The notes: generated by a model from the sequence alone, not told the origin. A stretch of 64,000 nucleotides of DNA from Parcubacteria group bacterium M6-OD1-1 (GCA_003056085.1 LSNK01000002.1:42485-106484); one strand, 5' to 3'; counted from the stretch's first letter, positions 17,960 to 37,752 are shown. Program-made: numbers and translations.

Positions 17960-19780
17960 CTAACTGCGTAATTCTCCAAGCTGTTGAAGCTTAACGAGCT
18001 TCGCATAAAGTCCATTGTGAGCCACTAATCGCTTGTGGTCTCCCTCCTCAATTATACTACCTCTATCCACTACACATATTTTATCCGCCATTTCAATAGT
18101 AGACAATCTATGCGCAATAGCCACAATTGATATGGACATTTCTTGTCTTAACTTCCCTATCATTTCTTGAATCGCCTTTTCCGCCTCGCTATCCAAGCTT
18201 GAAGTTGCCTCATCCAAAATAAGCACTTTTGCGCCATTTAAAAGAGCGAGGTATGCACGGGCAATGCCGACGCGTTGTCGTTCTCCTCCTGAAAGCCTGA
18301 CTCCTCTTTCGCCAACCTGCGTATTTAGACCATCGGGAAATCTACCTGTTTTTTTAAGCACAGAAACAAGATGAGCTGCATTAACTGCTTTAAGTATCTG
18401 ATCTTCTGATGCATCTGGACAAGCATAAGCGATATTTTCTCGCAAACTTAAATCAAAAATATCTACATCTTGCTGAACAGTTGCAAAAAGTCCGCGATAC
18501 CAGTTGCGATCAAGAGTACGGATATCTCTTCCGTCCAATGTTATACTTCCATCAGAAACATCATATACTCTGGCAAGCAAACGAACAACCGTAGATTTTC
18601 CTTCTCCACTTTTTCCGATAATTGCTGTCATCTGTCCTTGTGAAATACCCATATCAAAACTCTCAAGAATAAGTCTGCTTTTTTTGCTATAATAAAAACT
18701 GACATTATTAAATATAAACTCGCCACGATATTCACTCAAAATACCTGTTTTCGCATCGAGATTATTGTTTTGTACATCAATATTTGCACTCAATAAATCT
18801 TTCATGCGATATACCTCTACGATATCTTGCATCATTTTAGAGTATATTCTCACAATATTCTGCAAAGACCCCATAGATATGCCACCCGTTGCTATAAGAT
18901 ACACAAGAGTTCCAATATTAACCTCACTAAGAGAAACAAACCAAATGCCGGTCAGAAGTGCCGTTGAAAAAGCACCGCGCAAAACAAACCCAACAAAAAA
19001 CATCTCTTTTTGCATAGACAAGTGAATGCCAAGGTCAATTTTTTCCATACTGCCTCTTACTTCCTCCATGCGCCTTTTTTCCGTTTCTTCTTGTATAAAC
19101 CCCTGGACTGTAGCTACATTGATTATAGACTGACACAAAAATCCATTAGACGTTTCATTTTTACTTGACCATTCATTCCAGCTTGGAACACGCTTATCAT
19201 ATATACGCTTCACCAAGACAGCCATAGGAATAAATGGAGCAAAAAATATCAATGCCAGCACAGGACTTAGTGTCAGCATAATTACAAAATTTATCAGAAG
19301 ATAAAATACATTCGGCAAAATACCATCTAAAATGTTGCCTAAAAGCTCAATCATCTTGTCGCAGCCTTTGTTTATTTTTGTTACTTTTTTACCTGTATTT
19401 TCTTTCTCATGATACCCTTGGTGTAAAGCAAGCATTTTTTGCTGCACAACAACAGGCCACCAATTTTCAAGCCGTATAATACTTTTGAAAAAAATCGGAT
19501 TCTTAAAAAAATGATTCAAAATAAGTGCAAAAACAGGAGCAAGCGTCGCCATGACAAGTAAGAGTATGAATTGTTTATCATACCCATGCTTAATTACATT
19601 TGGCAATGCATTAACCACAAGATTAAGTGTATAAGGAATCATAAGAAAGACCACCTCAACACACAATATAACGAACACAAGCTTAATAATTCTTCCTTTC
19701 TCATCTCCAAGTAAATCCCATAAAATAGACAAACCTTTGATAAAAAATGAGCTGCTCCTATCTTCTTTTTTATTCTCCAT
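17960..19780 (-). CDS. ABC exporter, fused permease-ATPase (MsbA/type-1 exporter family); atypically GC-rich
   Basis: 6-TM domain plus GKSGEGKST Walker A, LSGGERQRVGIARA signature, ILDEATSSLD. Confidence 0.9.
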   Translation of the reverse strand: MENKKEDRSSSFFIKGLSILWDLLGDEKGRIIKLVFVILCVEVVFLMIPYTLNLVVNALPNVIKHGYDKQFILLLVMATLAPVFALILNHFFKNPIFFKSIIRLENWWPVVVQQKMLALHQGYHEKENTGKKVTKINKGCDKMIELLGNILDGILPNVFYLLINFVIMLTLSPVLALIFFAPFIPMAVLVKRIYDKRVPSWNEWSSKNETSNGFLCQSIINVATVQGFIQEETEKRRMEEVRGSMEKIDLGIHLSMQKEMFFVGFVLRGAFSTALLTGIWFVSLSEVNIGTLVYLIATGGISMGSLQNIVRIYSKMMQDIVEVYRMKDLLSANIDVQNNNLDAKTGILSEYRGEFIFNNVSFYYSKKSRLILESFDMGISQGQMTAIIGKSGEGKSTVVRLLARVYDVSDGSITLDGRDIRTLDRNWYRGLFATVQQDVDIFDLSLRENIAYACPDASEDQILKAVNAAHLVSVLKKTGRFPDGLNTQVGERGVRLSGGERQRVGIARAYLALLNGAKVLILDEATSSLDSEAEKAIQEMIGKLRQEMSISIVAIAHRLSTIEMADKICVVDRGSIIEEGDHKRLVAHNGLYAKLVKLQQLGELRS

Positions 19781-20335
19781 TTTATTCTACCTCTCAGTGG
19801 TTTTATGCAAAATTACGCAATATATATTTACCCGAGACAATTTCAGGTAAAATTTAAAAAGAACAACGCCTCGAAGAGCGAGACGTTGTTTAAATCTTTT
19901 ATTTATACTATGCAAAATTAGTTTTATCTATAAAATTTATTTTTAAAAATAAATAACTGTAAAAAATTTAAAATACTTCCCGCCCTGAAATTTTGAGCTG
20001 TCATATATGAAATTGTTGATGATAACATCATTCTTGGCATAAAAATGCGTACTAAAACAGAAGACGCAAAAAATACACCAAGACTAAAAGCACTAGAAAG
20101 CGCTCTCATCCAATTCATATTCATTTTTACATTATTTATTTCCATTATTTTAAATTTATATTCATTCAATACAATCTTCATTGCGTTAAATACTAATATA
20201 TCTTATATAACACAAAGAAAAAAATATGTCAAATTAAAACATACTAAAATTCCCTAATAATAACTTAGTCAAATATTTAATTTACTTTTGATCAAACTTT
20301 TGATATAAATACATCAAAGGCATTAACCTAAAATT

Positions 20336-20982: not shown

Positions 20983-21010
20983 CAAAAAATCGCCTTTAGG
21001 CGATTTTTTG
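20983..21010. terminator. Bidirectional terminator (aaatcgcc-ttta-ggcgattt, A-run and T-run)
   Basis: Read directly. Confidence 0.65.
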
Positions 21011-21019
21011 TTTTAAACT

Positions 21020-21193
21020 TTACCTTCCTTCTTCCTCCTCTACGTCCACCTCATCAAAAGCTCCCCAATGTTCACCGTCAATACAATTACACTCTTCTAA
21101 AGTATGTCCCTCCAAAGAACATCCTTCTGTTTGGCAGACCCCCGGAGTATCTGAAACTCCTTTGCATCCGCCTGTACAAATATAATGCGGCAT
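21020..21193 (-). CDS. 57-aa cysteine-rich small protein (MPHYICTGGCKGVSDTPGVCQTEGCSLEGHTLEECNCIDGEHWGAFDEVDVEEEEGR); below the ORF-track length cutoff
   Basis: Own translation; 8 Cys in the N-terminal 37 aa, acidic tail, GC-richer than the surroundings, last gene before the terminator. Confidence 0.45.
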   Translation of the reverse strand: MPHYICTGGCKGVSDTPGVCQTEGCSLEGHTLEECNCIDGEHWGAFDEVDVEEEEGR

Positions 21194-21233
21194 ATTTTTA
21201 AAAATTAATTATTATTAATTTTATACTAATAAA

Positions 21234-21824
21234 TTAATTTAATTTTTTATATGTCATCTTTTTCAAATCTTTCCACCAATCTGTAAATTCAGTATCTTTC
21301 ATTATTTTTATAATTTTTTTTGCAGATTCCGTCTCAAGCGCCTTCTCTACATTATTTATCCAATCCTGAGACGATTTATAACCCATGTCTAAATACTCTT
21401 TTGCTTGAAACGCCACTTCAAGCCAATCAGCATCTTTTGCCACGACTCCCTCCTTGGTATTTCTATTTTCATATTCCAAAAAATATTCTGTCCATTTTTT
21501 CTCTATTTCTTCTCCTAACCCTTGAATTTGTTCTGAAAATGCGGTTTTTTCACCTTCTTTTTGCGAAAAATAACGAGCAGACACCTTATGCTGGTCTCCC
21601 ACTCTCGCTTCTCCATTATCATGAATTATCATCATAGATGCAACTTTTTCAGGGTTTGCATCTCCTTCCATAACCGCCAAGATGTACCCTATTTGCGCGG
21701 CTCGCAAAGAATGCTCTGCAACAGTATCAGGATTTTTCACTCCGGCGAGTAAAAACCCTGTATGCCTTTGACGCTTAAGCTGACTTAATTCAAATATAAA
21801 ATTAACTATTTTTTTTGTATTCAT
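21234..21824 (-). CDS. HD-domain phosphohydrolase (YfbR-like)
   Basis: HSLRAAQIGYILA...IIHDNGEARVGD. Confidence 0.7.
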   Translation of the reverse strand: MNTKKIVNFIFELSQLKRQRHTGFLLAGVKNPDTVAEHSLRAAQIGYILAVMEGDANPEKVASMMIIHDNGEARVGDQHKVSARYFSQKEGEKTAFSEQIQGLGEEIEKKWTEYFLEYENRNTKEGVVAKDADWLEVAFQAKEYLDMGYKSSQDWINNVEKALETESAKKIIKIMKDTEFTDWWKDLKKMTYKKLN

Positions 21825-21840
21825 ATTTTATATGATAAAT

Positions 21841-23577
21841 TTAAAACTTAACAGTTTGCCCCGGTTTTAAAACCCCTGATTTTTTATCTTCCTCCTTTTT
21901 ATCACTTATTTTCTTTCCTGAAAAAGTTCTGGCACCCATCTTAAAAGCTTCTGCAAGAGATACTTCTTTGTCACCCGTACTTATAACTTTAAGATCCCCT
22001 TTTTGTATTTTATGAGCGGGCGCTGTTGCTTCTGAAGCCTCTTTTTTTATTTCTTTAGCCTCTTCTTCTTTCATATCTTCTGTTTTTTTATTTTCTGAAA
22101 TATCAGTTTGAGGTTTATTTTCCTTTTGAATTTTAGGTTTTTTAGCTTCTTCTTTTGCTTGTTCTTTTTGAACCTCAGCATAACAATCTTTGCAAAAAAC
22201 ATCTCTTTTTGGGTCCGGCTCAAAAGGCACTTGCGTTATCTTCTTGCACCTTGAACATGTAGCATCATAAAGTTTAACATTTGGTTTTTCTTCCGCCCCT
22301 ACCGGACTGCTCCATTCTGATATCTCTTTTTCCACATCTTCCCTTTTTGTGCTGTATTTTTTTCTTGATAACTCTATTATCTCTTTGGCGAAACTTTCTT
22401 CGTTTGGAATTGCCGGAGGCAAGGTGTCCGCAGAAAACGCGCTTGAAGAAACGCCGTCTATCATCAGTTTTAAATAGATTTTATAATTTGGCAAGTTTAC
22501 AAGGCTCTGCAGGTCAACCTGCGGAGCAAATTCTTTTTCAAAAAATTCAGCATCCTCAGCTCCGATTCTAAATAAAACCAAAGTCCCGACATTCCCCATA
22601 ATAGCCTCTTTAACTCCTGTATCGCCCAACTGATCCAAATACTGATGTGTTAATATTAAATTCAAACGATATTTTCTTGCCTCAGACAAAATATCAGCAA
22701 AAGATTCCGTTGAAAAGTTTTGAAACTCGTCTATGTACACAAAAAAGTCTTCTCTTTCTTCTTCGTTTGCTATATCAACTCTGGACATAGCGGCAAGTTG
22801 AATTTTGGTAATTATCATAGCACCTAAAAGCTTTGCCGTATCTTCTCCTATTCTTCCTTTTGAAAGATTTACTATAAGGATTTTCTTTTTGTCCATTATT
22901 TCTCTTATATTTATAGACGATTTTTTTTGTCCTACAATATTTCTTATCAAAGGATTAGTCAAAAACTGCCCGACTTTATTTTGTATTGGAGCTACCGCCT
23001 CAACTTCAAATTTTTGAGAATACTTTGAATACTCATCCAACCAAAAAGCCTTTATAACCGGGTCTGTCACCTTATCTATAACACTTTTTCTGTACTCTTT
23101 GTCAGAAAACATTCTCATAATACCCAAAAGAGTGCTGTCCGGGTCTTCAAGCAATGCCAAAATAGTATTTCTTAAAACATATTCAAGTCTTGGACCCCAA
23201 GAGTCCGCCCAAAGCTTCTTAAAAATTCCTATAAGACCGGATGCCACAAGGTGCCGTTCACTCATACCGACGCTTTCTGCGATATTAAATGCCATCGGAT
23301 TATCAATGTCAGCGGGGTTAAAATACACGATATCATTTTTTCTGTGCTCCGGAACATAATCCAAAATAGACTCAGCAAATTCACCATGAGGATCTATAAC
23401 AGCAACTCCATGTCCTGCTCTTATGTCTGCCACCATCATATTTTTCAGCAAAGTTGATTTACCTGCTCCGGTTTTCCCAATCGTATACATATGACGCCTT
23501 CGGTCATCTGTTTTGATGCCAAAAACTTGTTCTTTGTTTCTGAAATTTGTTTTTGCAAATGGTACTACGTCTTCCAT
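21841..23577 (-). CDS. HerA/FtsK/TraD-superfamily P-loop ATPase (DUF87-like) with a C-terminal CxxC...CxxC zinc ribbon and a K/E-rich tail
   Basis: Walker A IGKTGAGKSTLL, Walker B FFVYIDEFQNF, ARKYRLNLILTHQ arginine-finger region; CSRCKK...CKDC. Confidence 0.7.
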   Translation of the reverse strand: MEDVVPFAKTNFRNKEQVFGIKTDDRRRHMYTIGKTGAGKSTLLKNMMVADIRAGHGVAVIDPHGEFAESILDYVPEHRKNDIVYFNPADIDNPMAFNIAESVGMSERHLVASGLIGIFKKLWADSWGPRLEYVLRNTILALLEDPDSTLLGIMRMFSDKEYRKSVIDKVTDPVIKAFWLDEYSKYSQKFEVEAVAPIQNKVGQFLTNPLIRNIVGQKKSSINIREIMDKKKILIVNLSKGRIGEDTAKLLGAMIITKIQLAAMSRVDIANEEEREDFFVYIDEFQNFSTESFADILSEARKYRLNLILTHQYLDQLGDTGVKEAIMGNVGTLVLFRIGAEDAEFFEKEFAPQVDLQSLVNLPNYKIYLKLMIDGVSSSAFSADTLPPAIPNEESFAKEIIELSRKKYSTKREDVEKEISEWSSPVGAEEKPNVKLYDATCSRCKKITQVPFEPDPKRDVFCKDCYAEVQKEQAKEEAKKPKIQKENKPQTDISENKKTEDMKEEEAKEIKKEASEATAPAHKIQKGDLKVISTGDKEVSLAEAFKMGARTFSGKKISDKKEEDKKSGVLKPGQTVKF

Positions 23578-23613
23578 AAATTTAACTTATTATTTTAAAT
23601 TACAAACACCACC

Positions 23614-24867
23614 TTAAACAATCGGCAAATCTGAAGGCGGTTGTACTTTTTTAGTTTGAATTTTTGGTAAAGAAGGAGCCTCAACTATAACAGAAGGAAT
23701 GTGATAAACCGTTGCCAATTCTTCAACATTTAAAATTATACCTTTACTGGAAAATAATTTTCTTCTCGCATTCCTATAAAGTTTTCTTTTTCTTAAATAA
23801 TTTCTGGTTTTAGCGAAAAAATAATCAACATTTGGAGACACTTTAAAACTTGGCATAAAACCATTTAAATTAGCTGAAGAAAATTGATTAAATGTCCCTA
23901 AAATTGCCGGAATATTTGCTCTTGAAAACACGCCTCTCCTTCCAATATACAATATTCTTATATTTGTATGAAACCCATGCTTGGAAATACTCTCTTCTAA
24001 TATTTTTACAAGCTCTATTTCACCAGGAGAAAGTTTTTTATCTTTTTCTTGACCTTCTTCCTGCTTTTTTTTGTCCTCCGGGACTCTGCCAAAAAGATAC
24101 CAAACCATATCATAAAAAAACATAAATACCTCTTCAACTACATTGTCGGCGGGCTTTTTTTTATTTTTCCCTAAAATCCTATCTATAAGATCTCTGCCTT
24201 TTTTCTGCCACGCATCTCCAGCCGGCCTTACCATATAATGAACCCATATCTGCTCTCCTTCACCTATTTGAGCCAAAGCCTCCATCAAAGAAGACATTGG
24301 GTCTATAAATTGAGCCTTCGCCTCAATACTCAATTGAATATCTTCTTTAAAATTTTTGTATGTTTTTATGGGGTATGCATCTTCTTTTGTAAAAACAAGT
24401 TCCGTCCCCCACATATCATAATCCTCATTTGGGATATCCGCCGGTAAGTTAAATGTATAATCATCCACCTCTACAAAATTAGCGTCCGAATAATAAGCCA
24501 AAAATTGAGATGTTATTAAACTTTTAAATTGACTTGGAGTTCTTATAAAAAGATGGATGCTGCCATTTATGCTTGCAACTTCAAAAGAAATTTCCGGCTG
24601 ATGCTTGCCATGGATATATTTTTCTATTATAGTCGATCTTGACCTTATAGAATAAATACCCGTGAAAATATGCTCCATAACCTTCGGTGTTTTTTCCACA
24701 ACCTGAGGAATTTTTATCTCAAGAACCAACCACTTGAGGTTAAGACTATACTTTAATCTAACATAATCCATCCATAAGTTTTTCCACACCAAAAAAAGAA
24801 GGATAGGCAGCACCACCCATCCCCAACTAAACAAAAGATCAATAAAATCTGAGAAACCTACTTCCAT
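23614..24867 (-). CDS. Membrane-anchored protein (N-terminal TM, large soluble domain) cotranscribed with the HerA-like ATPase
   Basis: WGWVVLPILLFLVW TM; 36-nt gap to the ATPase gene. Confidence 0.5.
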   Translation of the reverse strand: MEVGFSDFIDLLFSWGWVVLPILLFLVWKNLWMDYVRLKYSLNLKWLVLEIKIPQVVEKTPKVMEHIFTGIYSIRSRSTIIEKYIHGKHQPEISFEVASINGSIHLFIRTPSQFKSLITSQFLAYYSDANFVEVDDYTFNLPADIPNEDYDMWGTELVFTKEDAYPIKTYKNFKEDIQLSIEAKAQFIDPMSSLMEALAQIGEGEQIWVHYMVRPAGDAWQKKGRDLIDRILGKNKKKPADNVVEEVFMFFYDMVWYLFGRVPEDKKKQEEGQEKDKKLSPGEIELVKILEESISKHGFHTNIRILYIGRRGVFSRANIPAILGTFNQFSSANLNGFMPSFKVSPNVDYFFAKTRNYLRKRKLYRNARRKLFSSKGIILNVEELATVYHIPSVIVEAPSLPKIQTKKVQPPSDLPIV

Positions 24868-24936
24868 AAGTTATTAGAACCCTTTTAGACAATATTTTTC
24901 TTGCGATAGGAAGAGCTACATCACACAGCGGGTTTA

Positions 24937-25995
24937 CTATGCTTTATAAATATATCTTCCATCTTCTATTTTCTCAAAAATATCATTATTTTGCAAGTTT
25001 AACATCACCGTATTTTCTTTTACATCTCTTTCTTTTAAAACGGCGTTTAATATCTCTTGCTTTTTCATAGGTTTTTTGCTGTCTTTTAAAACTCTTTTTA
25101 AAACATCCGAGACAGTTCCTGACTTGTATCCCCACTCCGACAAAGCATATGTACCCCTGCCAACTAAGATAAATTTTTTGTCTTTTATAAGTTCATTATG
25201 CACTGTTTGAGGATGCGCCTTTTTCTTATCATTAAATTTTTCATTTATCTTATCAACCACAAATCTGAAATGCATCGGTTTTTTGTGTTTTTTCAACACC
25301 AAATAAGCCTTATCACGAACCCCCTTGGTTGATATTTCAGACCAATGCTTAATACCGTAGTCCTCATAAACATTTGAAGAAATGTTTTTTGACATAACAA
25401 GATATGACTCTAAAGTTTTTTGAGTAGCTCCGTCAGAAACAATTTGAGAAAGCCAATCCAATAGTTCTTTTTTTGTTATAGTATTTTTATGAGCTTCAAT
25501 CTTTTTTATTAAAGACTCTAAAGATTTCTTTGTTATCTGAACTACTGATTTTTTTGTTGACCAAACACCATGAAAATCAGGATTCTCCGGAGTTTTTATA
25601 AATTTATTTCCAATATTCAATAGAAAATACATCAAAGCCTCAGCGTCCTTTTTCGCCGCTTTTTTTGAAAAAAACATATCAAGATCAGAATTTAAAAAAT
25701 GATGCTCAACCCTCAAGCCTCCGTGTTCTTCTATATGACTTACCAAGGCGTCAAAAAAAGAATCTAAATTTTTTATTTCTTTAGATTTTAAAAACGCTGC
25801 TTTGGCATCGTTTTCTATTTGCCTAACTCTTTCTCTTGTAATATTGTAACCGCGTCCTATTTCCTCAAGAGTTTTTCTTTTTCCATCGGAAAGACCGAAT
25901 CTTTTTGTTAAAATATCCCTTTGTTTTTTAGATAAAGATAATAAAATATTTTCTGTTATTTTTTTGACATCAATTTTTCCTGTTTTGTTGCTCAT
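24937..25995 (-). CDS. Sigma-70 region-4 HTH domain protein with a C-terminal HARE-HTH (RpoE-delta-like) domain
   Basis: TLEEIGRGYNITRERVRQIENDA (sigma r4); C-terminal PMHFRFVVDKINEKF...FILVGRGTYALSEWGY (HARE-HTH pattern). Confidence 0.55.
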   Translation of the reverse strand: MSNKTGKIDVKKITENILLSLSKKQRDILTKRFGLSDGKRKTLEEIGRGYNITRERVRQIENDAKAAFLKSKEIKNLDSFFDALVSHIEEHGGLRVEHHFLNSDLDMFFSKKAAKKDAEALMYFLLNIGNKFIKTPENPDFHGVWSTKKSVVQITKKSLESLIKKIEAHKNTITKKELLDWLSQIVSDGATQKTLESYLVMSKNISSNVYEDYGIKHWSEISTKGVRDKAYLVLKKHKKPMHFRFVVDKINEKFNDKKKAHPQTVHNELIKDKKFILVGRGTYALSEWGYKSGTVSDVLKRVLKDSKKPMKKQEILNAVLKERDVKENTVMLNLQNNDIFEKIEDGRYIYKA

Positions 25996-26097
25996 ACTTT
26001 TGTCTCTTTTTATTTTTATAAATAAGGTAGCTTTTACTTTAGCACAAAGACTAATATTAGTCAAGAGAAATTATGAAGTTAAGCTAAATCTCAAAAC

Positions 26098-27012
26098 TTA
26101 GTTATCTTTTTTTAATTTTTTTTCCATAGTAACCAAAAGATTGCTTCCTATAAAGATAGACGAGTACGTTCCTGCTGTTACGCCTATAGCAAGCGCCAAA
26201 GCAAAATATTTAATAGATTCTCCTCCAAACATAAAAATAGCAACCAGCACTAAAATAACCGTCAAAGATGTATTTAAAGACCTGACAAAAGTCTGATTTA
26301 TAGAAATATTCACAGTATCCTCAAAGTCTTTTCCAATATGCCTCATTAAATTTTCTCTTACTCTGTCAAATACTACAATGGTATCATTAACAGAATAACC
26401 CAAAACAGTCAAAATAGCCGCTATAAAGGCGCTTGATATTTCAATATCATAAAAATTCCCTAAAAAAGCAAAAACTCCGACAGGAATAATAACATCATGA
26501 AACAAAGCAACTAAAGTGGCAAAGCCGTATCTCCAAGAAGCTAAAGGATACGAAACTCTTCTAAAAGCAAACGCCACAAACAACACAACCGCAACTAAAA
26601 CAAATATTATTGCGTTAACGGCCTTCTTTGAAAGCTCTGCACTTACAGACGGACCTACAGATTCATAGCTTTTTTGTAAAAATCCATTTCCTTCACTCTT
26701 TTTTTGCGCCGCCTCGTTTAAAGTTACTAAAATCTCCTGGTGAACTTTCTCGCTAATCTCCTTTGTTCTTATAAAGACACCTTTGTCTCCTGAAGACTGT
26801 ATTGTAATATCACCAAGTTTATATTTTGCTAAAGCATTGGAAATGTCTTCTTTTGAAAGTTGTTCCGTTTTAAATTCACCCAAAAGTAAAGACCCGCCTT
26901 TAAAATCCACTCCAAGATTCAATCCCCAAAGAAGTAAAGACAAAATAGAAAGAGCAACTAAAACTCCTGAGATAGAATAATATATTTTTCTGTATTTTGT
27001 TATTTGTACCAT
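26098..27012 (-). CDS. secF: Protein-export membrane protein SecF
   Basis: SecF topology and motifs; overlaps secD by 13 nt. Confidence 0.9.
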   Translation of the reverse strand: MVQITKYRKIYYSISGVLVALSILSLLLWGLNLGVDFKGGSLLLGEFKTEQLSKEDISNALAKYKLGDITIQSSGDKGVFIRTKEISEKVHQEILVTLNEAAQKKSEGNGFLQKSYESVGPSVSAELSKKAVNAIIFVLVAVVLFVAFAFRRVSYPLASWRYGFATLVALFHDVIIPVGVFAFLGNFYDIEISSAFIAAILTVLGYSVNDTIVVFDRVRENLMRHIGKDFEDTVNISINQTFVRSLNTSLTVILVLVAIFMFGGESIKYFALALAIGVTAGTYSSIFIGSNLLVTMEKKLKKDN

Positions 27013-28445
27013 AAAAATTTTCCTCTTTCTAATTTTAATCCTGAAAATATCTTAAGCATCATTCTTGTAATAAAGACAGCTGAAAACATTGAAACTACAA
27101 CTCCTAAAAACAAAGTCAAAGCAAAACCTTTTATTACACTTGTTGTGAAAAGATACAAAATAACGCAGGTGATTAAGGTTGAAGTATTTGAGTCGCGTAT
27201 AGAAGGCCATGCTCTCTTAAAACTATCATCTATAACAAGACTGAACGACTTCCCTGTCTTAAATTCTTCTTTCATTCTGGCAAAAATCAAAATATTGGCA
27301 TCAATAGCCATCCCCATGGACAAAATAAACCCTGCGATACCGGCAAGCGTCAGAGTAACCGGCAGAAGTTTAAAAATCGCCAAAAGTAGAACAGCATACA
27401 TCAAAAGTGAGAAAACAGCTATAATTCCGGGAATTCTATACCACAAAATCATAAATATACCTATGAGTAAAAACGCCCAAATACCAGCTGTTAAACTTTT
27501 ACTTAGGTCTTCTTTACCTAAAGAAGCCTCCACTGTCTGCTGAGAAACAAGCTTCATAGGAACGGGCAAAGCTCCGGATTTCAACCTTCCAACAAGCTGT
27601 TTTGCCTCCTCTACTGAAAAATCTCCGGTAATAACGGCCCTTCCTCCGGAAATAGCCTCATTAACAACAGGATTGGAAATAGGAACTCCGTCAAGATAAA
27701 TAGCCACAGTTTTACCGACATTTTCCGATGTAAGCGACTCAAAAAGACCAGCTCCCTCTTCGTTAAAATATAAATTTACAACTGGAACATAGGTGTTTTG
27801 ATCAAAAGTCAACTCTGAATTTTCTAAAAATTTACCATTTAGAGGCGTGGAAACATAATAAGGATCCTCAGTAAGCCTCTCTCCGGCTTCTTGCGCTTTT
27901 AATATCTTATCTTTTTCCTCTTTTGGTCTTTCCGTTTTAAATTCCAAATAAGGGGTATCCCCTATCATTTTTATTGCAGCAGATACATCTTTTATACCCG
28001 CAAGCTCAACTATAATTCTATATTCTCCCGCAACTTGAGATGTTTGAACCACAGGCTCTGCCACACCAAATAAATTTACTCTTCTCTCTATAACATCACG
28101 CATCCCGTTAAGAGCATCTTTCTGCTCTTCTTTCGGAACATTTGACATATCCGCAACATAAACAAGATGAGTTCCTCCCTGTAAGTCCAAACCAAGACTA
28201 AAAGGAATATTTTTAAAATTTGGTATGCTTACCTCATATTTTTGATTTAAATAAGACGCCGACTTATTCCAATACGAAGGAAAATCCAAAGCGAAAGCAA
28301 AAAACGAAGCGATAATAACAACGAGTAATATATATCCTGCTTTCTGTCTTTCTCCTTTTGGCATAAATAAAAAACCGAAGATCAATCCAAGGCCTTTCCA
28401 AAAATATTCAAATGGTTTTAATAATAATTTATACAATTTATTCAT
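27000..28445 (-). CDS. secD: Protein-export membrane protein SecD
   Basis: SecD periplasmic domain plus 6-TM C-terminus (LTLAGIAGFILSMGMAIDANILIFAR). Confidence 0.9.
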   Translation of the reverse strand: MNKLYKLLLKPFEYFWKGLGLIFGFLFMPKGERQKAGYILLVVIIASFFAFALDFPSYWNKSASYLNQKYEVSIPNFKNIPFSLGLDLQGGTHLVYVADMSNVPKEEQKDALNGMRDVIERRVNLFGVAEPVVQTSQVAGEYRIIVELAGIKDVSAAIKMIGDTPYLEFKTERPKEEKDKILKAQEAGERLTEDPYYVSTPLNGKFLENSELTFDQNTYVPVVNLYFNEEGAGLFESLTSENVGKTVAIYLDGVPISNPVVNEAISGGRAVITGDFSVEEAKQLVGRLKSGALPVPMKLVSQQTVEASLGKEDLSKSLTAGIWAFLLIGIFMILWYRIPGIIAVFSLLMYAVLLLAIFKLLPVTLTLAGIAGFILSMGMAIDANILIFARMKEEFKTGKSFSLVIDDSFKRAWPSIRDSNTSTLITCVILYLFTTSVIKGFALTLFLGVVVSMFSAVFITRMMLKIFSGLKLERGKFLWYK

Positions 28446-28566: not shown

Positions 28567-28607
28567 TAAAAAAGAAAGGAGGTGATATATCATCACCTCC
28601 TTTTTAA
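28567..28607. terminator. Bidirectional terminator aaaggaggtgat-atatc-atcacctccttt
   Basis: 12-bp stem flanked by A/T runs. Confidence 0.6.
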
Positions 28608-28610
28608 AAA

Positions 28611-29550
28611 TTACTCTTTTTTGCCGTGTAATTCAAAAATAACATCATTGAGCCTGCTAAGATTGTCCTGGCATTTTTCAATTCGTTTTTTGATTTCCAA
28701 AACATCTTCAGGATTTATTCTTGAAACAATATCTTTTAAAGAACTCTCCGGCATCATATTTACAGCATTTACTTCCTTATTTATTCTTTCAACAAAAGAA
28801 ACAAATTTCTGAATATTACTGCTTATCCTTTTTCTTCTTTTGATAACCATATGACTATCAGGAAGCCCTTCAACCACATTATTTACAAAACTCTGCCTTT
28901 CCTTCCCGCTTTTTAATGTCAGCATTTTTTCGTATATGCTTTTTTGATGTTCACAAGACACTTTTGCAAGAATTAAAGCCGTAGTAAATCTAAGCCTCTT
29001 GTCGTCCGAAACATTAGGATGCATTAGACTTTGGAGTTCCGGAGATAATCTTTGCAAAGAAAGATATTGAGAAACCCAAGAACCAGACTTGCCAAGACCT
29101 ATTGCAATTTCAGAAATAGACCTGTTGGCTACCACTTCTTTTTTTAAAGCATTTGATATCTCCATATTCGTATGGGGGTTTTTTGTGAAAATTCAAAATA
29201 AGAGAAGCTGAAAAAAGATCATCAACGCTCTTTATATCCATATCTATATAGATTTTGACACGCCTTACATCGGCATGCACACAACCTCTCCATCTGCTTT
29301 CACCATCAATTATGACATATTTTACGCCGGGAATACCGCAAACCTCCACAACAGAAACGGGGTCTTTCAATCCCTTGGTTATTATACTTTCTGAAAGTGA
29401 AATAATCTCCTCCTCACAAAACCAGTCTCTCGGCTGTCCTTTGTAAGGAGCTATTTCTTCAATATTTGCCATTGTAGGCAATATATGACAATCGGGATTT
29501 TGTATAACAATGTTTTCATCCTTCAAATCCACCGCTTCAGAAACATTCAT
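28611..29550 (-). pseudogene. parB-like gene split by a frameshift. An N-terminal ParB/Srx nuclease-like domain (29110..29550) is followed, after a frame change at a T7/A7 homopolymer (29139-29145), by the HTH part (28611..29165).
   Basis: GQPRD...YVIIDGESRWRGC ParB N-domain; ISEIAIGLGKSGSWVSQYLSL HTH; the two ORFs overlap 56 nt in different frames across the A7 tract. Confidence 0.6.
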
Positions 29551-29683: not shown

Positions 29684-30409
29684 ATGAACCGCCTATCAGA
29701 TGAAGAAAAATTGGTTAAAAAACATAGATTATTGGTAAAAAATATAGCCTATAAAATATCATTAAAACTGCCAAAAAGCATTGCTCTTGATGATCTTATT
29801 CAAGATGGCATGATCGGACTTTTAGACGCTGCTAAAAAATATGACTCTTCTCTTGGGTCATCATTTGAAACTTACGCCAGCATACGCATTCGCGGAAACA
29901 TACTTGATGGATTGCGCAACAGCAATATTCTTCCAAGAGGAATCATTCATCTTTCTCAAAAAATAAAAAAAGCAGAAGAAAAAGTTCAAAACAAAAAACT
30001 AAGACCCATCACAAATAGTGAAGTAGCAAAAGAAATGGATATTCCAATAAAGGAATTTCATAAAATACTAAATGACATTCAACAAGGCAACATGATATCA
30101 ACTGAAAATTCACGATTTACCAATGACTCAAAAGGAAGATCAGTTCTTGACTGGTATGAAGACAACAACTTCAATCCGGAAGTAATTTTAGAAATAGAAG
30201 AATTCGTTGACTCATTAAGCGCATTCGTAAAGTCATTACCGGAAAGAAAACAGGCTATTTTCACATTGTCTGAAATAGAAGGTTTAAGCGAAAGAGAAAT
30301 AGGAGTACTGTTTGGTATATCAGAATCAAGAGTAAGTCAAATCTTAGCTAAAGTACGAAACGAATGGAAAGCGGAACAATTTGCAGCAAACTTAAAACTG
30401 ATTGTTTGA
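29684..30409 (+). CDS. Sigma-70 family sigma factor (FliA/sigma-28-like group 3) with a strong SD (AAGGAG) 10 nt upstream
   Basis: Region 2 FETYASIRIRGNILDGLR; region 4 LSEREIGVLFGISESRVSQILAKV. Confidence 0.85.
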   Translation: MNRLSDEEKLVKKHRLLVKNIAYKISLKLPKSIALDDLIQDGMIGLLDAAKKYDSSLGSSFETYASIRIRGNILDGLRNSNILPRGIIHLSQKIKKAEEKVQNKKLRPITNSEVAKEMDIPIKEFHKILNDIQQGNMISTENSRFTNDSKGRSVLDWYEDNNFNPEVILEIEEFVDSLSAFVKSLPERKQAIFTLSEIEGLSEREIGVLFGISESRVSQILAKVRNEWKAEQFAANLKLIV

Positions 30410-30420
30410 TAAACAAATCC

Positions 30421-30458
30421 AAAGCCCCTCGTTGCCTTAAGGCAACGAGGGGCTTTTT
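30421..30458 (+). terminator. Terminator: 16-bp perfect stem aaagcccctcgttgcc-ttaa-ggcaacgaggggcttt plus T5
   Basis: Read directly. Confidence 0.75.
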
Positions 30459-30475
30459 CATTCTCCCATAGATTC

Positions 30476-30498
30476 TCCCATAGGTGTCACCTATGGGA
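30476..30498. repeat. REP-B copy 1 (tcccataggtgTcacctatggga), preceded by a partial duplication ctcccatag
   Basis: Palindrome family cccataggtg[W]cacctatggg. Confidence 0.8.
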
Positions 30499-30534
30499 AT
30501 TCCTTGTTCGAGGTTCAACCTCGAACAAGGAATT
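30498..30534. repeat. REP-A copy 2 (37-nt palindrome aattccttgttcgaggttCaacctcgaacaaggaatt), directly abutting REP-B1
   Basis: Read directly. Confidence 0.8.
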
Positions 30535-30535
30535 T

Positions 30536-32161
30536 TTATTTTTTCAAAAGAAGTCTCGCAACTCTCAGCTCATCAAAAGAAAAATCACGACCAAGTATGT
30601 CACGAACAGGCACAAGCTTTGTGTCTTTTGTTTTTAAAAAAGCATTTTTTATCTCCTTTAGTCTGCTTTTTTTAAACTCCGCCTCCAAATATTTTAAATC
30701 CAACTCCTCCCCACCTGCTAAAATCTTTTCCAAATACCCCACAACTGTCCTCTCTTTTATACCTCTTTTTTCTGCAATTTCAGAAATAGAAAGTTTTTTT
30801 TCAACAAGCAGTTTAGTTTTTTTTAGCGTGGAAACATTTTCTTTTTCAGTTTTTTCAACCTTGCCCAAAAATTTATTCAGTTTATCTTTTTTTTCTTCAT
30901 CATCTAACTTCTTAAGCTCGCTTAAAGCTTTCTCTGACGCCTCTTTCAGCTCTTTGTCTAAAAAAAGCGCTTCTTCATTAACTTTAAGAGCCATATTATT
31001 AAGTCCCAAAAGCTTAAGCCCGGAAAGTGAAGAAACGCGCGATAAAGCGACATAGCCCATCCCTTCTACAAATGATCTTGAAAGATCTATTTCAGCGGCG
31101 TCCAAAGTCATCCCTTGGCTTTTGTGTATGGTTATCGCCCAAGCTAAACGCAAAGGTATTTGCCTTACCTGCGCTCGAACTTTCCCATCTTCCTCAACGC
31201 TCCACTCCGCCGGCTCCGCCAATATATTTTTTCCGCTGAAAGTTTTTACCAAAGGCAATCCGGAATCGGAAAATCCAATAACCTCACCAAGCGTTCCATT
31301 GGCATATCCGGTATCAAAATTATTTTTCGTAAACATTACAAAAGCCCCCCTCTTCAAGATAAGTCTTTCAGGCGAAAGACAGCTGTTTTTTAAGCTTTCC
31401 GAAAGCTTTTTATTTCCGGAAAGCTGCATTTGGTAGGACTTTGCCGTCTCAGATATCTTCCTAAGTTCTTTCTCATTAACTCTATCCACATCAAAATTAT
31501 GCGTATGAAGTTTTGTCGCAACAGAACTTTCAACAACTCCATCAAACCTTTTTTGTAAAATATCAAGAGTATTTTTCCTAATTTCTCCGGAGCGAATATC
31601 CTCAAGTACTCCCAGAAGCTCATCTTTATTTTGACGATGCTGTTCACTTAAATAACAAACCTTCAAGTCCATACCGCTCCAAACCTTGGATTTGTTTATA
31701 AAATCCGCTTTTTTACTGCCTTGGCTGATGGGAGGCAGCTGAAAAAAGTCCCCGCAAAGCACAACCTGTAAACCGCCAAACGCAAGATTATTTTCAAAAA
31801 AAGCCTTTAAAACCTCATCCACCAAATCCAATCTAAAAGAGTGAAGCATAGAAACCTCATCAATTATCAAAACTTTAGTTTTTTTAAAACGCCGCGCAAC
31901 TTGCGGTTTTTTAAGCACCTTAAAAACCTCCTCGGGAGAAAGAAAATCACGGATACCAAGCCCGGACCAGGAGTGAATAGTCATCCCGTTCATATGAGTT
32001 GCGGCAACTCCGGTTGAGGCGGTAACTCCAACCCCGACTTTATTTTCTTTTAAAAATTTAATGTATTTATTCAACACAAAAGTCTTCCCGCTCCCGGCAG
32101 AACCCGTCAAAAAAACATTATGCCCCATTTTCAAAATTTCAAGTGTTTCTTTTTGCGTCAT
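30536..32161 (-). CDS. PIF1/RecD-family DNA helicase with a C-terminal HTH domain. The start is taken at MTQKETLEIL; the track start lies inside the REP-adjacent C-run.
   Basis: VFLTGSAGSGKTFVL, VTASTGVAATHMNGMTIHSW, LIIDEVSML, ...ITIHKSQGMT. Confidence 0.8.
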   Translation of the reverse strand: MTQKETLEILKMGHNVFLTGSAGSGKTFVLNKYIKFLKENKVGVGVTASTGVAATHMNGMTIHSWSGLGIRDFLSPEEVFKVLKKPQVARRFKKTKVLIIDEVSMLHSFRLDLVDEVLKAFFENNLAFGGLQVVLCGDFFQLPPISQGSKKADFINKSKVWSGMDLKVCYLSEQHRQNKDELLGVLEDIRSGEIRKNTLDILQKRFDGVVESSVATKLHTHNFDVDRVNEKELRKISETAKSYQMQLSGNKKLSESLKNSCLSPERLILKRGAFVMFTKNNFDTGYANGTLGEVIGFSDSGLPLVKTFSGKNILAEPAEWSVEEDGKVRAQVRQIPLRLAWAITIHKSQGMTLDAAEIDLSRSFVEGMGYVALSRVSSLSGLKLLGLNNMALKVNEEALFLDKELKEASEKALSELKKLDDEEKKDKLNKFLGKVEKTEKENVSTLKKTKLLVEKKLSISEIAEKRGIKERTVVGYLEKILAGGEELDLKYLEAEFKKSRLKEIKNAFLKTKDTKLVPVRDILGRDFSFDELRVARLLLKK

Positions 32162-32180
32162 AATTTTATTTCCAACCCCC

Positions 32181-32211
32181 CCCATGTTCGAGGTTCAACC
32201 TCGAACATGGG
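32181..32211. repeat. REP-A copy 3 (cccatgttcgaggttCaacctcgaacatggg)
   Basis: Read directly. Confidence 0.8.
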
Positions 32212-32225
32212 AAAATTGAATTAAA

Positions 32226-35200
32226 TTAGAATTTTTGAGCGGACCACAAAATAAAAGATATATTCCCTGCAATTTCCGCACCTTTGCCGTCTAAATTTAA
32301 AGCGTTATTAAATGGACCTGACTCTTCTCCCCACCAATTGTTTTTTGCACTTATAGGTAAAGATCCTCCACCTCTTACCGTGTATTTACTGATTATGCTT
32401 GGATAAATATTTGAATTAGAAATTGTAATCTTAGACTCTCCTTGAGTATAAAGACTTTCATTTGAAATATTTTTAAATTCTGAATTTAATATAACAACCT
32501 CTCCATCATCTAAGGCAACTATACCTCCTGTATTTTCTTCAAAAACAGTATTAGACATCTCTATACTTCCCCCTCTTGCGAAAATAACTGCCGACTGAAA
32601 AGACCCTTGTAAAGAAAAATTACCTCCATAAGAAAATACAACATTATCAAAAACTGCTATCTTGCTTTTTTCTGTGATGTTTAAAGCCCCCCAAAGTCCG
32701 GCTCGATAACCATTTTCCTCCGTATTTGGAGTTGATAAAGCTGTAAAATATATTTTATTTTCTTTTGTTCCTACAGCTTCTATTTCGCCATTAATTACAA
32801 ATACAGCATTTTGCATCATACTCAAGGTTACCCCGGAAGCTATTGTTAGTTTAGCATTCTCGCCAACACTTAACCAATCAATAACATAGGGAATATCTTT
32901 TTCAAATACAAAATCATCATCAATATTTGCTAAAATTCTTACTCTGCTTTTTTCATCAAAATCATTATCTAAAATAGTCAATCTGCTTCCAATATTCCCT
33001 CTTATAAAAATATTATCCTTATCTCCCTCAAAATTATTTTTTTCTATCTTGAACTCAGAAGTTGTTGCAGTTTTTAAATAAATATCAATAATATTTCCGG
33101 AAAAATTATTTTCTGAAATAACAGAAGATGACTTTTGATCGCCTGCATATATACCATATCCATTGAATTCTCTATTGGAATAAACATTTGGTTCTGTATT
33201 TTTAATTTCACAACCGGATATTTCAGGATAAGAATTTTCTTCTATATTTATTCCGAACGCTTTACTTTCTTCAATTCTACAATTTAAAATTTTAGGACTT
33301 GAATTTTTAATATACAAAGAACCTTTATAATCATCTGAAGAATACCTATTTGAAGCTCCCCCATATCTTATAATAACATTTTCCAAAACAGAATTAGATG
33401 CTTCTTCTCCAAATATTTTAATATTTCTCCACATACCTGACTTTGTTTCTACATCCTGTTTGTCGCTATTATATCCATCCACCTCATCATCTGATATATA
33501 TGTAAAAATAATTTTTTCTTCTTTTGTTCCTTTAGCGCTTAAAGTTCCGTATACAATGATTGGAGTTACTAAAGAATCTTGATAATTCCTATTCCGAGAG
33601 GACTTAATAACGACCCCGGGATCAATTTCAAGCTCTCCGCCTTTTTGAATCGTTATGCTTGACTCCACAATGTACGACATATCATTTTTTGAAAAAATTG
33701 CTTTTGTGCTTGAAGCTATCGCGCCAGCTATATATATCCCGTCTTCTTTATTTTCATCTTTATTATTTTTTATCTTAATATTAAAAGAATTTGAATATAT
33801 GTCTATATTTCTTTCGTTTCCGGAAAAAATATTATTTTTTATTATCAATGGAGTACTTGATGCTGATTTAGAAACTATACCTTTGTTATTATTTTCAAAA
33901 ATACTATCCAAAATTTCTGCTGTTGAACTTGCATCTTTTATATAAATTCCATATCCGTTTTGCGCTTTGTTGTTTATGTAGCTTGCATCAGTATTCTTTA
34001 TAGAACAATTTGCTATTTTGGGGTTCGAACCATCTTTTATATAAATTCCATATCTACTCGAATTATCAATAACACAATTTTCTATTTTTGGACTTGAGCT
34101 GAATACACTTAAAGCGCCCTCGGACACAAAACTCATCTGAAATCTTTTTGCCGCTCCTCCATATTTTATTTGAATATTTTTCAAAACTGACTCCTCTCCT
34201 GTATTTTCGAAAACTATCCCTCTCCAATCTCCAAAAACAGGCTCTCTATTTTCCAATTGGTCAGAATTAACTCCGTCTGCTTCATCATCAAAAAATGAAG
34301 TAAATATTATATCTTCATTTTCCACTCCTTTAGCATCTAAAATTCCATTTACCAATAAAAAAGACTCTGTATTTTGATTTGACTTTACACCTCCAAACTT
34401 AACTGTCACTCCCGGCTCTATGATTAAAGTTACACCTTTTTGAATAGCAATTCCATAATTTATATAATAAGGACTCGCTTCTTTTGACCAAAAAGTATCT
34501 TTTTCTATATTTTTACCTATATGTGTATAAAGCCCTGAAACGCTATTCTTTCTTCCTGGAGTCCCCAAAATTTCATTTTCTGAAGCATCTTTTGCAAAAA
34601 CATCACCAGAAAAATCAAGCCAGTTTAAAGCATCGTCACCTTCTGAATAAACACTGACACGCTCCATTGTTCTTTTTTCTGAATTATCACCGGCATGCCA
34701 CTTATTTGTAAAATCAATTAAATCTCCTTTATTATCTCTTAAAAATAAATCCGATCCCAACCCAATATTATTCATAGCTCCGGTATAAAGTTGATTTTCT
34801 TTAATGTCAGTCGTTGTGCTTGCTGTTCTTTCAAGTAGATAATATCCTTTCGGCTCTATCACACCGGTAAGTTCAATAGAAAAATTTTTTGAATTTTTAA
34901 GAGTCCAACCGGAAAGATTTATTTCATAGTCCATTTTATTGTAAAGCTCTATCCACTCATCACTTGAGTCTGCACTTGTCCCCATCCATGCAATTTCATT
35001 TATAACCACCGGGACTTTATAAGACAAAAACTGCATTAAAGCCCAATTTGATTCTATCTTATTTTCTATATTTTTTGCCTTTACCCGAAAAATATATTTT
35101 ACATCATCTCCTGTTGTTAAAAACTCAACTGTCGTTGAGCTTGTTTGATCCTCTATATCCTGCCAATCCTCTTGAAAATTTGTTTTATATTGCAAATCAT

Positions 35201-37603: not shown

Positions 37604-37704
37604 GTCCTTTAAAATTAATATTTAATATTTATTTAAAATTAGTTATATTATTTAAAATTAATATCAATCCCAAAACATCATTACTCCCATCTATATTCGA
37701 TGTC

Positions 37705-37731
37705 TATGTTCGAGGTTCAACCTCGAACATA
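37705..37731. repeat. REP-A copy 4, immediately downstream of the RAYT-1 stop
   Basis: tatgttcgaggttCaacctcgaacata. Confidence 0.8.
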
Positions 37732-37752
37732 TAAAAGATATTTGATTTTTCT

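Follow-up and report, generated by a model that had tools for sequence, protein, structure and literature searches.

Patescibacteria account for a large share of bacterial diversity and have tiny genomes, and most of the core genes enriched in this phylum have no known function. Type IV coupling proteins (T4CPs) are DNA-dependent hexameric motors that are usually encoded beside a relaxase gene, and a 2025 review of type IV secretion systems (T4SSs) divides T4CPs into the VirD4 and TcpA families, each with its membrane domain at the N-terminus (PMC12857230). Homologues of the VirD4 type were counted in 2,918 of 3,035 Patescibacteria genomes (about 96%), with 148 of the 5,713 homologues lying near virB4, and exaptation of these orphan T4CPs "cannot be ruled out" according to the authors (Quinonero-Coronel et al. 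2025, PMC12102498). The same report describes TrsD, a stand-alone protein remotely related to the VirB4 N-terminus, as abundant beside virB4 in Patescibacteria (PMC12102498). Here we analyse a stretch of 64,000 nucleotides (nt), hereafter the window, from Parcubacteria group bacterium M6-OD1-1 (GCA_003056085.1 LSNK01000002.1:42485-106484). Three of its genes, which follow one another on the minus strand, encode a protein with a sigma-70 region 4 and a HARE-HTH domain (gene 1), a membrane protein of the DUF8128 family (gene 2) and a T4CP/VirB4-type ATPase (gene 3); genes for an HD phosphohydrolase and a 57-amino-acid (aa) mini-protein come next. An earlier description made from the bare DNA, the sequence-only reading, had taken all five for one conserved operon behind secD-secF. 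We find a core module of the first three and lean towards reading genes 2 and 3 as a two-chain motor of the T4CP/VirB4 branch of FtsK-HerA ATPases, its function being inferred.

Homologues of genes 1 and 3 have been catalogued in Southlakia epibionticum, in which SEML1_0294 and SEML1_0293 adjoin on one strand and both carry the flags core and Patescibacteria-enriched (Wang et al. 2023, PMC10633639 Tables S1 and S2). SEML1_0294 (349 aa; Sigma70_r4 at 27-72, HARE-HTH at 225-283) is annotated "RpoS" and was essential at all time points of transposon sequencing (Tn-seq); SEML1_0293 (921 aa; TrwB_AAD_bind at 402-719, P-loop domain at 361-795) was called non-essential, with normalised reads going from 5817 to 1372 (PMC10633639). 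A second T4CP-like protein of this organism, SEML1_0142 (1019 aa, "TraM recognition domain"), is essential (PMC10633639 Table S1), so that two distinct T4CP-like paralogues of opposite essentiality enter the orphan T4CP problem. The main text of Wang et al. (2023) and Meheust 2019 hold no discussion of the SEML1_0293 and SEML1_0294 families, and our literature search found no mention of DUF8128 and no description of the DUF8128 partner, the trio or the split architecture.

A conserved trio in the Patescibacteria core genome

One genome per species was scanned with DUF8128, the best 80 of at least 588 matches were kept, and seven local proteins were located around them by tblastn. In these 80 species-level Patescibacteria loci the genes run in the order sigma-r4/HARE-HTH, DUF8128, ATPase. 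The ATPase gene lies directly downstream of DUF8128 on the same strand at 72 of the 76 loci with room for it, the sigma-r4/HARE-HTH gene directly upstream on the same strand at 70 of 74, and secF further upstream, also on this strand, at 33 of the 53 loci with enough flank. The order of the trio is kept despite an identity of only 31-52% between the DUF8128 proteins of different loci. An HD or mini-protein gene adjoins DUF8128 at none of the 80. Unsupervised clustering of the flanking open reading frames (ORFs) returned DUF8128 (79 loci), the ATPase (72), gene 1 (69) and SecD/F (44) as recurrent; the next families, namely efp, MnmA, AlaRS, SecA, a PrsA-like peptidyl-prolyl isomerase (PPIase), HtrA, DHH, PGK and ComEC, reached at most 14 loci.

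The contexts on both sides of the trio vary between loci. Gene 1 is preceded by secF, an SMC-like ATPase, a ComFC-like gene or an alpha/beta hydrolase, and the trio stays intact amid these other surroundings, for instance behind the SMC-like ATPase in Moraniibacteriota and behind the ComFC-like gene in another contig. In the closest relative (68% identity) the genes run secD-secF-gene 1-DUF8128-ATPase, and the convergent efp comes immediately after. The conserved unit is a three-gene module of the Patescibacteria core genome and not a five-gene system. The neighbourhood comparison across related genomes, which the sequence-only reading had proposed as a check on its operon, thus upheld gene 1, DUF8128 and the ATPase and removed the HD and mini-protein genes.

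The ATPase is a soluble relative of T4CPs and VirB4

Gene 3 matches Pfam TrwB_AAD_bind (6e-13), DUF87 (2e-8), TraG-D_C and the zf_Tbcl_2 ribbon. Its score against PF10412 (TrwB_AAD_bind) is 48.9 bits over residues 23-338, for a gathering score of 20.5, and it passes PF01935 (DUF87/HerA; 35.3, cut-off 23.2), a model that also matches VirB4 and T4CPs and is therefore non-discriminating. The curated NCBIfam T4CP models TIGR03743, TIGR03754 and TIGR02759 gave 19-30 bits against cut-offs of 366-647, with the P-loop stretch alone matched, and the VirB4 model TIGR00929 gave 16.8 against 643. FtsK_SpoIIIE (PF01580) reached 15.1 bits, below its threshold of 24 and over the P-loop only, and no 4TM N-domain, alpha or gamma domain was detected. 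These profile searches bear out the earlier assignment to a HerA/FtsK/TraD clade with a CxxC...CxxC ribbon, the lysine/glutamate (K/E)-rich tail is present as well, and the protein does not profile as a housekeeping FtsK/SpoIIIE. In the fold comparison the VirB4 C-terminal domain scored 28.3 and TrwB 26.6, FtsK came 16th, and a resemblance to DptH was seen. The model shows a helical block at 108-230, an all-alpha insert in the nucleotide-binding domain; it contains no HerA-type HAS barrel, and no NurA, Sir2 or DUF4297 gene is a neighbour.

An all-alpha insert and a P-loop domain with intact Walker A and B motifs are common to this ATPase and the VirD4/TrwB/TraD coupling proteins (R388 TrwB, PDB 1e9r). 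Unlike these, the chain has no transmembrane (TM) segment: Walker A begins at residue 34, and a hydrophobic 19-mer occurs in only 1 of 65 orthologues. The anchor is instead provided in trans by DUF8128, with a putative VirB4-N-terminal-like fold that canonical T4CPs lack. Further differences are the zinc ribbon, the scores far below the cut-offs of the curated T4CP equivalog models, and the chromosomal, core location of the Patescibacteria gene, unlinked to relaxase or T4SS genes; such linkage was seen only for a fused homologue in Peribacillus (see below). Identity remains at 55-70% across Azam-, Portnoy-, Terry-, Pace- and Nomurabacteria, and the search returned more than 8,000 matches. The strict CxxC-x17-CxxC motif is present in 38 of 65 orthologues only, with about 10 more CxxC..CxxH variants recognised by eye, so the ribbon is considered as accessory; a domain of this type binds zinc in small proteins of Methanosarcina (PMC12704099). 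The tail is 38% K+E, and an ending of the LKPGQxIKF type recurs in several orthologues.

FtsK and SpoIIIE belong to the same ATPase superfamily, and a membrane-tethered motor with an associated winged-helix DNA-binding element would be analogous to the FtsK N-domain, motor and gamma domain. It is nevertheless very improbable that the module substitutes for FtsK/SpoIIIE in chromosome segregation at division, given the sub-threshold Pfam score and the low structural rank of FtsK. Moreover, S. epibionticum possesses a canonical essential FtsK (4TM, alpha, motor, gamma) flagged as a core family (PMC10633639), whereas its homologue of the present ATPase is non-essential.

DUF8128, a predicted membrane anchor with a VirB4-like fold

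The precomputed family PF26449 (DUF8128) is assigned to every one of the 120 homologues listed for gene 2 (417 aa), with identities down to 30% and E <= 3e-61. A profile search returned 4,151 representative clusters, and the family is carried by at least 588 species. The structure model (pLDDT 85, pTM 0.80) consists of a long helix at 5-43 followed by alpha/beta domains. A hydrophobic 19-aa window (Kyte-Doolittle >= 1.6) is found in 59 of 79 orthologues, at median position 21. The N-terminal anchoring proposed earlier is thus visible in sequence and model alike, and the positive-inside rule suggests that the protein beyond the anchor is cytoplasmic. A near-invariant EELATxYHxP motif (Table 1) precedes the point at which the fused homologue runs into its ATPase; in the hhalign alignment with the Peribacillus fusion it corresponds to residues ~285-300.

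In a fold-library comparison with the model, a C-terminal-only VirB4 chain, TrwB and HerA were all in the library and are absent from the matches, so that the matched part must be the VirB4 N-terminal domain. Foldseek independently ranked eleven TrwK chains first. At the level of fold only, the modelled cytoplasmic domain of DUF8128 therefore appears to be VirB4-N-terminal-domain-like; its profile gave no match to PDB sequences at E <= 10. Compared with VirB4 (R388 TrwK, 7o42; Thermoanaerobacter VirB4 C-terminal domain, 4ag5), both halves of the pair would be VirB4-like in fold, but in Paceibacteria they are two separate polypeptides and show no sequence-level similarity to VirB4 N-terminal domains. 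TrsD of the pGO1-type Gram-positive T4SSs is a precedent for a VirB4-N-terminal-like protein encoded apart from its ATPase. TrsD homologues adjoin virB4, whereas DUF8128 adjoins an orphan T4CP-like ATPase, and the two families do not align by hhalign. The statement that the locus does not map onto a named system is half true: the ATPase is presumably among the orphan T4CP homologues already reported (PMC12102498), and its partner has a Pfam DUF number.

A fused homologue in a Gram-positive conjugation locus

Searching plasmids with DUF8128 by tblastn gave matches inside "DUF87" ATPase genes of Bacillaceae. On Peribacillus plasmid NZ_CP068052.1, residues 53-314 of an 870-aa protein align with the DUF8128 profile (hhalign, probability 98.7%, E 2e-16) and residues 344-745 with the ATPase profile (99.9%, E 1e-32), in the same order as the two genes of the window. 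With this fusion and the adjacency of the two genes at 72 of 76 loci, the earlier suggestion that the membrane protein is the partner of the ATPase is supported. The neighbours of the fused gene encode a PriCT primase, Replic_Relax, TcpC, TcpE, a VirB6-like CD3337/EF1877 membrane protein and a cell-wall hydrolase (lytic transglycosylase/C40 peptidase). The plasmid also carries a separate ConE/VirB4-like ORF of ~860 aa with Walker A at residue 493, which spans the record origin (L104 end plus L102 start). Since a relaxase-like gene adjoins it and the locus has its own VirB4, the fused form occupies the coupling-protein position of a Gram-positive conjugation locus; as this VirB4 is a canonical one, the family is a paralogue in that position and not the VirB4 of a T4SS. 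The ConE/VirB4-like ORF is missing from the distributed gene table, and NZ_CP068052.1 is typed "non-mobilizable" despite a near-complete Tcp-like conjugation locus.

Other relatives outside the phylum are less complete. On a megaplasmid of Pontibacillus the two parts are split and the ATPase has decayed, and the context of a relative on a Sulfitobacter plasmid is transposon-ridden and uninformative. Scans of viral contigs returned 8 relatives of the ATPase core (39-58% identity), without ribbon, DUF8128 or gene 1, and the carriers of stand-alone cores are an integrase island and phage-like contigs; in annotated phages the relatives are all less than 30% identical. DUF8128 is essentially absent from viral contigs, with one marginal fragment in the scan. 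The integrase island, an IMG/VR UViG (uncultivated virus genome) from isolate genome 637000192 (L094 1-7531, GC 0.59), has a P4-type integrase. It encodes a 411-aa ribbon-less homologue (39% identity) and, next in order, a multi-pass membrane protein of 1165 aa for which Pfam gave no match at E <= 0.001. In L093 a second, weaker ATPase match (22% identity) lies downstream of the first, and the L094/L093 arrangement may be a different two-ATPase system. On the phage-like IMG/VR contig L087 (4956-7010, GC 0.42), a 432-aa core 58% identical to the Patescibacteria protein is followed by a PLD-family (Nuc-like) protein, with neither DUF8128 nor gene 1.

These occurrences on plasmids, on an integrase-flanked island and on phage-like contigs, which include the closest relatives of the ATPase outside Patescibacteria, would be expected if the trio were the remnant of an integrated conjugative or mobilisable element. 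We regard this as scarcely credible. Neither the window nor about 100 Patescibacteria loci showed an integrase close to the trio, and the same set gave no VirB4, TrsD, TcpC or relaxase-like match and no VirB3, VirB6 or VirB8 homologue with Firmicutes queries, whose sensitivity is limited. The chromosomal neighbourhood secDF ... efp/UDG/LTD/murC is shared with the 68%-identical relative, GC is uniform, and DUF8128 is spread over at least 588 species. The sequence-only reading had offered competence, a conjugation-like process or defence: the conjugation-like option holds as ancestry, through the fused homologue in a Tcp-type conjugation locus. Defence or a mobile element does not hold, in view of the housekeeping context, the 55-70% ATPase identity across orders and the near-absence of DUF8128 from viral contigs.

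Gene 1 combines sigma region 4 with a delta-like HARE-HTH domain

The Pfam matches of gene 1 (Sigma70_r4 2e-12, HARE-HTH 2e-13) agree with the domain composition given earlier, and its co-conservation at 70 of 74 loci makes it part of the module. The region 4.2 helix-turn-helix (HTH) and the HARE-HTH are its most conserved stretches (column identity up to 0.86 in the HARE-HTH, 69 orthologues), and region 4 displays the motif RFGL..TLE.IG..Y.ITRERVRQIE. An alternative TTG start at 26064 would give 375 aa; the closest orthologue has 352 aa. The region-4.2 HTH nearly matches the RpoD consensus of sigma-70 factors. However, Pfam and NCBIfam scans matched only Sigma70_r4 and found no region 2, whereas a bona fide sigma factor in the same window (29684-30409) shows r2, r3 and r4. 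Because it lacks region 2, gene 1 is not a sigma factor, despite the "RpoS" annotation in S. epibionticum. Compared with the delta subunit of RNA polymerase (RNAP; RpoE of Firmicutes), its HARE-HTH passes the cut-off of the NCBIfam delta N-domain model (TIGR04567; 45, cut-off 42), but it has extra winged-helix domains and neither the acidic C-terminal tail nor the ~170-aa two-domain layout; another conserved helical segment lies C-terminal to the HARE-HTH. We propose that gene 1 encodes a protein of DNA- or RNAP-binding type with an essential role of its own.

Separately, a 568-aa "RpoD" of Abditibacteriota plasmid AP024153.1 (L106 26-6403) aligns with gene 1 over 91% of its length at 23% identity, and Pfam finds only Sigma70_r4 in it. 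The locus that it heads also encodes DUF4007, a small AAA protein and a methyltransferase of Eco57I/MmeI type, an MZA/BREX-like defence context.

Sigma region 4 and the delta HARE-HTH are RNAP-binding modules. Gene 1 might then be an essential general transcription factor that binds RNAP and merely shares a promoter region with an unrelated T4CP-like pair. The opposite essentiality calls in S. epibionticum speak for this, as do the delta-model score and the occurrence of such a sigma-r4/winged-HTH protein in the MZA/BREX-like locus without this type of ATPase. Yet the genes are adjacent at 70 of 74 loci and in Saccharimonadia although those upstream of gene 1 vary, and persistence at 31-40% protein identity usually reflects coupling. 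We consider two unrelated functions side by side as possible but somewhat unlikely.

A membrane-tethered DNA motor as the preferred function

On this basis, the reading of genes 2 and 3 as one motor can be spelled out as follows. DUF8128, with its single membrane helix and a cytoplasmic domain shaped like the VirB4 N-terminal domain, would tether to the inner membrane face a hexameric ring of the ATPase, a RecA-like motor with an all-alpha insert and, in many lineages, a zinc ribbon and a charged tail. The arrangement would be that of the VirB4 N- and C-terminal domains, distributed over two chains. Driven by ATP, the ring would thread DNA or nucleoprotein at the membrane and either hand it to a separately encoded Patescibacteria T4SS or ComEC uptake route or act alone. 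The ribbon, the tail and gene 1 would contribute to the binding of substrates or partners, and gene 1 may target or regulate the motor as well. Taken over from conjugation, the module would now serve a chromosomal function not needed in laboratory co-culture. Membrane-tethered DNA translocation is our best guess for this function. DNA is favoured as substrate by the relaxase-adjacent ancestry, by the DNA/RNAP-binding domains that make up gene 1, and by the DNA-related roles that most of the structural relatives have (TrwB, DptH, HerA, FtsK).

Several points weigh against this proposal. DNA pumping is not established for ATPases of the VirB4 type, and T4CPs recruit proteins as well. The Foldseek TM-scores of DUF8128 are low (0.31-0.38), hhalign found no match between DUF8128 and pGO1 TrsD, pGO1 TrsE or a ConE-like VirB4, and the ribbon is missing from at least a quarter of the ATPase orthologues. 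That the gene 3 family is the one counted as "T4CP homologues" in PMC12102498 is presumed, and that the ~360-aa N-terminal extension of SEML1_0293 would most simply be a fused DUF8128 is deduced from length and domain coordinates. With gene 1 essential and the ATPase not, the two need not work together. Finally, the recurrent neighbours belong to protein export (SecDF at 44 loci, SecA 8, PrsA-like 8, HtrA 7), and genes of DNA uptake are rarer (ComEC 6, DHH 7).

This SecDF, SecA, PrsA and HtrA neighbourhood is the basis of the main rival to a DNA role, in which the DUF8128-ATPase pair works on proteins in cooperation with Sec, for instance as receptor or dislocase with pilins or secreted proteins as its substrates. 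VirB4 handles pilin and some T4CPs handle effectors. We nevertheless think such a protein-handling motor unlikely: the fused homologue has a relaxase-like gene as neighbour and lies in a conjugation locus with a VirB4 of its own, the zinc ribbon and charged tail occur in many orthologues, gene 1, which is co-conserved, consists of DNA/RNAP-binding domains, and outside the SecDF lineages the trio stays together without Sec genes. A bolder version of the DNA motor, which we hold to be doubtful, would make the trio a phylum-wide, T4SS-independent machine, in which the essential sigma-r4/delta-like protein links DNA or RNA polymerase to a two-piece motor moving DNA across or along the membrane, e.g. 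for uptake of scavenged DNA behind ComEC or export to the host. If true, a conjugation motor would have been domesticated into core physiology, which would explain the "orphan" T4CP of nearly every Patescibacteria genome.

The HD hydrolase and the mini-protein are lineage-specific passengers

The fourth gene encodes an HD phosphohydrolase, as described before (Pfam HD_3 3e-23, 82.8 vs 22.5; YfbR-like 43.7 vs 25.9; equivalog NF003009 41 vs 122). It is YfbR/5'-nucleotidase-like and nothing marks it as the nuclease-like component that had been supposed. A second HD_3/YfbR-like paralogue is located at 1115-1711 on the minus strand (1e-32), too diverged from the copy at 21234-21824 for phmmer. The 57-aa ORF is a real gene, as previously suspected, with 20 homologous clusters at 50-100% identity; in Nomurabacteria it adjoins UDG and TauE. 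Its eight cysteines had been miscounted: six cysteines and two invariant histidines make up eight invariant candidate metal ligands (H3, C6, C10, C20, C25, C35, C37, H42). Both genes are absent from the closest relative, whose ATPase is followed directly by efp, and are therefore insertions in this lineage. The HD gene is probably co-transcribed here without being part of the conserved module, and we regard the two proteins as lineage-specific passengers on the local transcript.

The tight spacing of all five genes ahead of one terminator would fit the DNA-processing, competence or defence system of the sequence-only reading, with the HD protein as nuclease and the cysteine-rich protein as component. 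PADLOC searches do match the ATPase to mad8 (1e-20) and HerA models, and its fold resembles DptH; the bioRxiv MADS paper gives no mechanistic detail on mad8. In defence based on DNA modification, the DptH/DndH C-domain and mad8 are soluble ATPases that resemble T4CPs. Such systems occur patchily and are linked to defence, whereas the trio lacks methylation or phosphorothioation partners and its ATPase is a near-universal core protein that evolves slowly, the reverse of what defence genes show. PADLOC matched neither DUF8128 nor the HD protein nor the mini-protein. Considering also that the last two are at 0 of 80 loci and missing from the closest relative, that the mini-protein travels with UDG and TauE elsewhere and that the YfbR-like protein has a paralogue in the window, a five-gene system is barely conceivable.

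Gene layout and surroundings

Coordinates are collected in Table 1. The five minus-strand ORFs of the sequence-only reading are all present; gene 1 lies 102 nt from secF, and the gaps between successive genes are 69, 36, 16 and 40 nt. The bidirectional terminator is equally well supported: the hairpin folds at -18.8 kcal/mol (z = -6.0, no shuffle folding equally well) and is flanked by an A-run and a T-run. A promoter scan of the window was uninformative (37 sites, 36.1 expected).

Table 1. Features of the trio and its immediate neighbours (positions in the window)
Feature	Position	Strand	Remarks
Bidirectional intrinsic-terminator-type hairpin	20983-21010	.	between mini-protein gene and convergent efp
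Mini-protein gene	21020-21193	-	57 aa
HD_3/YfbR-like phosphohydrolase gene	21234-21824	-	196 aa
Gene 3, T4CP/VirB4-type ATPase	21841-23577	-	578 aa
Disordered K/E-rich tail of ATPase, ending LKPGQTVKF	21844-22173	-	pLDDT < 50 at 483-539 and 552-567
CxxC-x17-CxxC treble-clef zinc ribbon of ATPase	22174-22272	-	residues 436-468; Pfam zf_Tbcl_2 1.3e-12, TIGR04272 8e-13
Walker B of ATPase, FFVYIDE	22726-22746	-	residues 278-284; D283, E284 invariant
Walker A of ATPase, GKTGAGKS	23455-23478	-	G34-S41; G34, K35, T36, G37, G39, K40 invariant
Gene 2, DUF8128 membrane protein	23614-24867	-	417 aa
Near-invariant C-terminal motif of DUF8128, EELATxYHxP	23695-23727	-	E383, A385, H389, P391 invariant (orthologue alignment)
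Predicted transmembrane anchor of DUF8128	24784-24846	-	~residues 8-28, basic stretch after it
Gene 1, sigma-r4/HARE-HTH	24937-25995	-	352 aa from ATG
HARE-HTH winged-helix segment of gene 1	25132-25314	-	residues 228-288 of 352-aa form (251-311 of 375-aa)
Sigma-70 region 4 HTH of gene 1	25804-25944	-	residues 18-64 of 352-aa form (41-87 of 375-aa)
secD-secF, frequent upstream neighbour of trio	26098-28445	-	

The window has a uniform GC of ~33%, nearly all of its genes are on the minus strand, and its content is housekeeping (secA, obg, murB, murC, UDG, efp, secDF), with best protein matches in Patescibacteria/Parcubacteria metagenome bins. No tRNA gene and no Rfam family match were found within the 64 kb. 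Up to ~44 kb the GC skew is strongly negative (-0.15 to -0.34); at 44-56 kb it is weaker. Upstream of secD, a ParB_N ORF (28611-29165, minus strand) and a KorB-HTH ORF (29110-29550, minus strand) overlap by 56 nt in different frames and could be read as two genes or as one ParB-like gene with a frameshift; between this pair and secD lies a strong hairpin (28575-28603). In the closest relative (L003) the order is Wzy_C, Wzy_C, NUDIX, secD, and the window has ~9 kb between the Wzy_C genes and secD (29684-38448). This stretch, which may be an inserted island, contains a Y1_Tnp gene (IS200/RayT-like), the ParB-like pair and genes for an LTD/beta-helix surface protein of 1600 aa and a Pif1 helicase that has HTH_40; it also encodes, on the plus strand, a complete sigma factor of group-3 type. 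Paralogous Y1_Tnp (IS200-like) genes at 37753-38448 and 42909-43613 bracket tandem paralogous Wzy_C plus TPR membrane proteins (38527-40614, 40692-42809). On the far side of efp, the window has in addition to L003 an ABC exporter (17960-19780) and an 85-aa ORF (19924-20181), together at 17960-20181; the 85-aa ORF is called as a gene in locus L098 too. These extras mirror the HD/mini-protein insertion on the near side of efp.

Significance

These results give the orphan T4CP-like ATPase an obligate membrane partner, DUF8128, whose modelled fold is VirB4-N-terminal-domain-like. The pair is a split version of a coupling protein that Firmicutes plasmids encode as one chain next to relaxase genes, and falls outside the two-family VirD4/TcpA scheme (PMC12857230). 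It travels with a sigma-r4/HARE-HTH gene whose Saccharibacteria homologue is essential and mis-annotated as RpoS, and the module, often preceded by secDF, lies among housekeeping genes. Annotations of three widespread families are thereby corrected, and S. epibionticum, with SEML1_0293 and SEML1_0294, offers a genetically tractable relative for testing. Partly anticipated by the 2025 report on orphan T4CPs, the locus is a split coupling-protein type, bearing a predicted VirB4 N-terminal domain, that has been domesticated as a near-universal chromosomal module of Patescibacteria.

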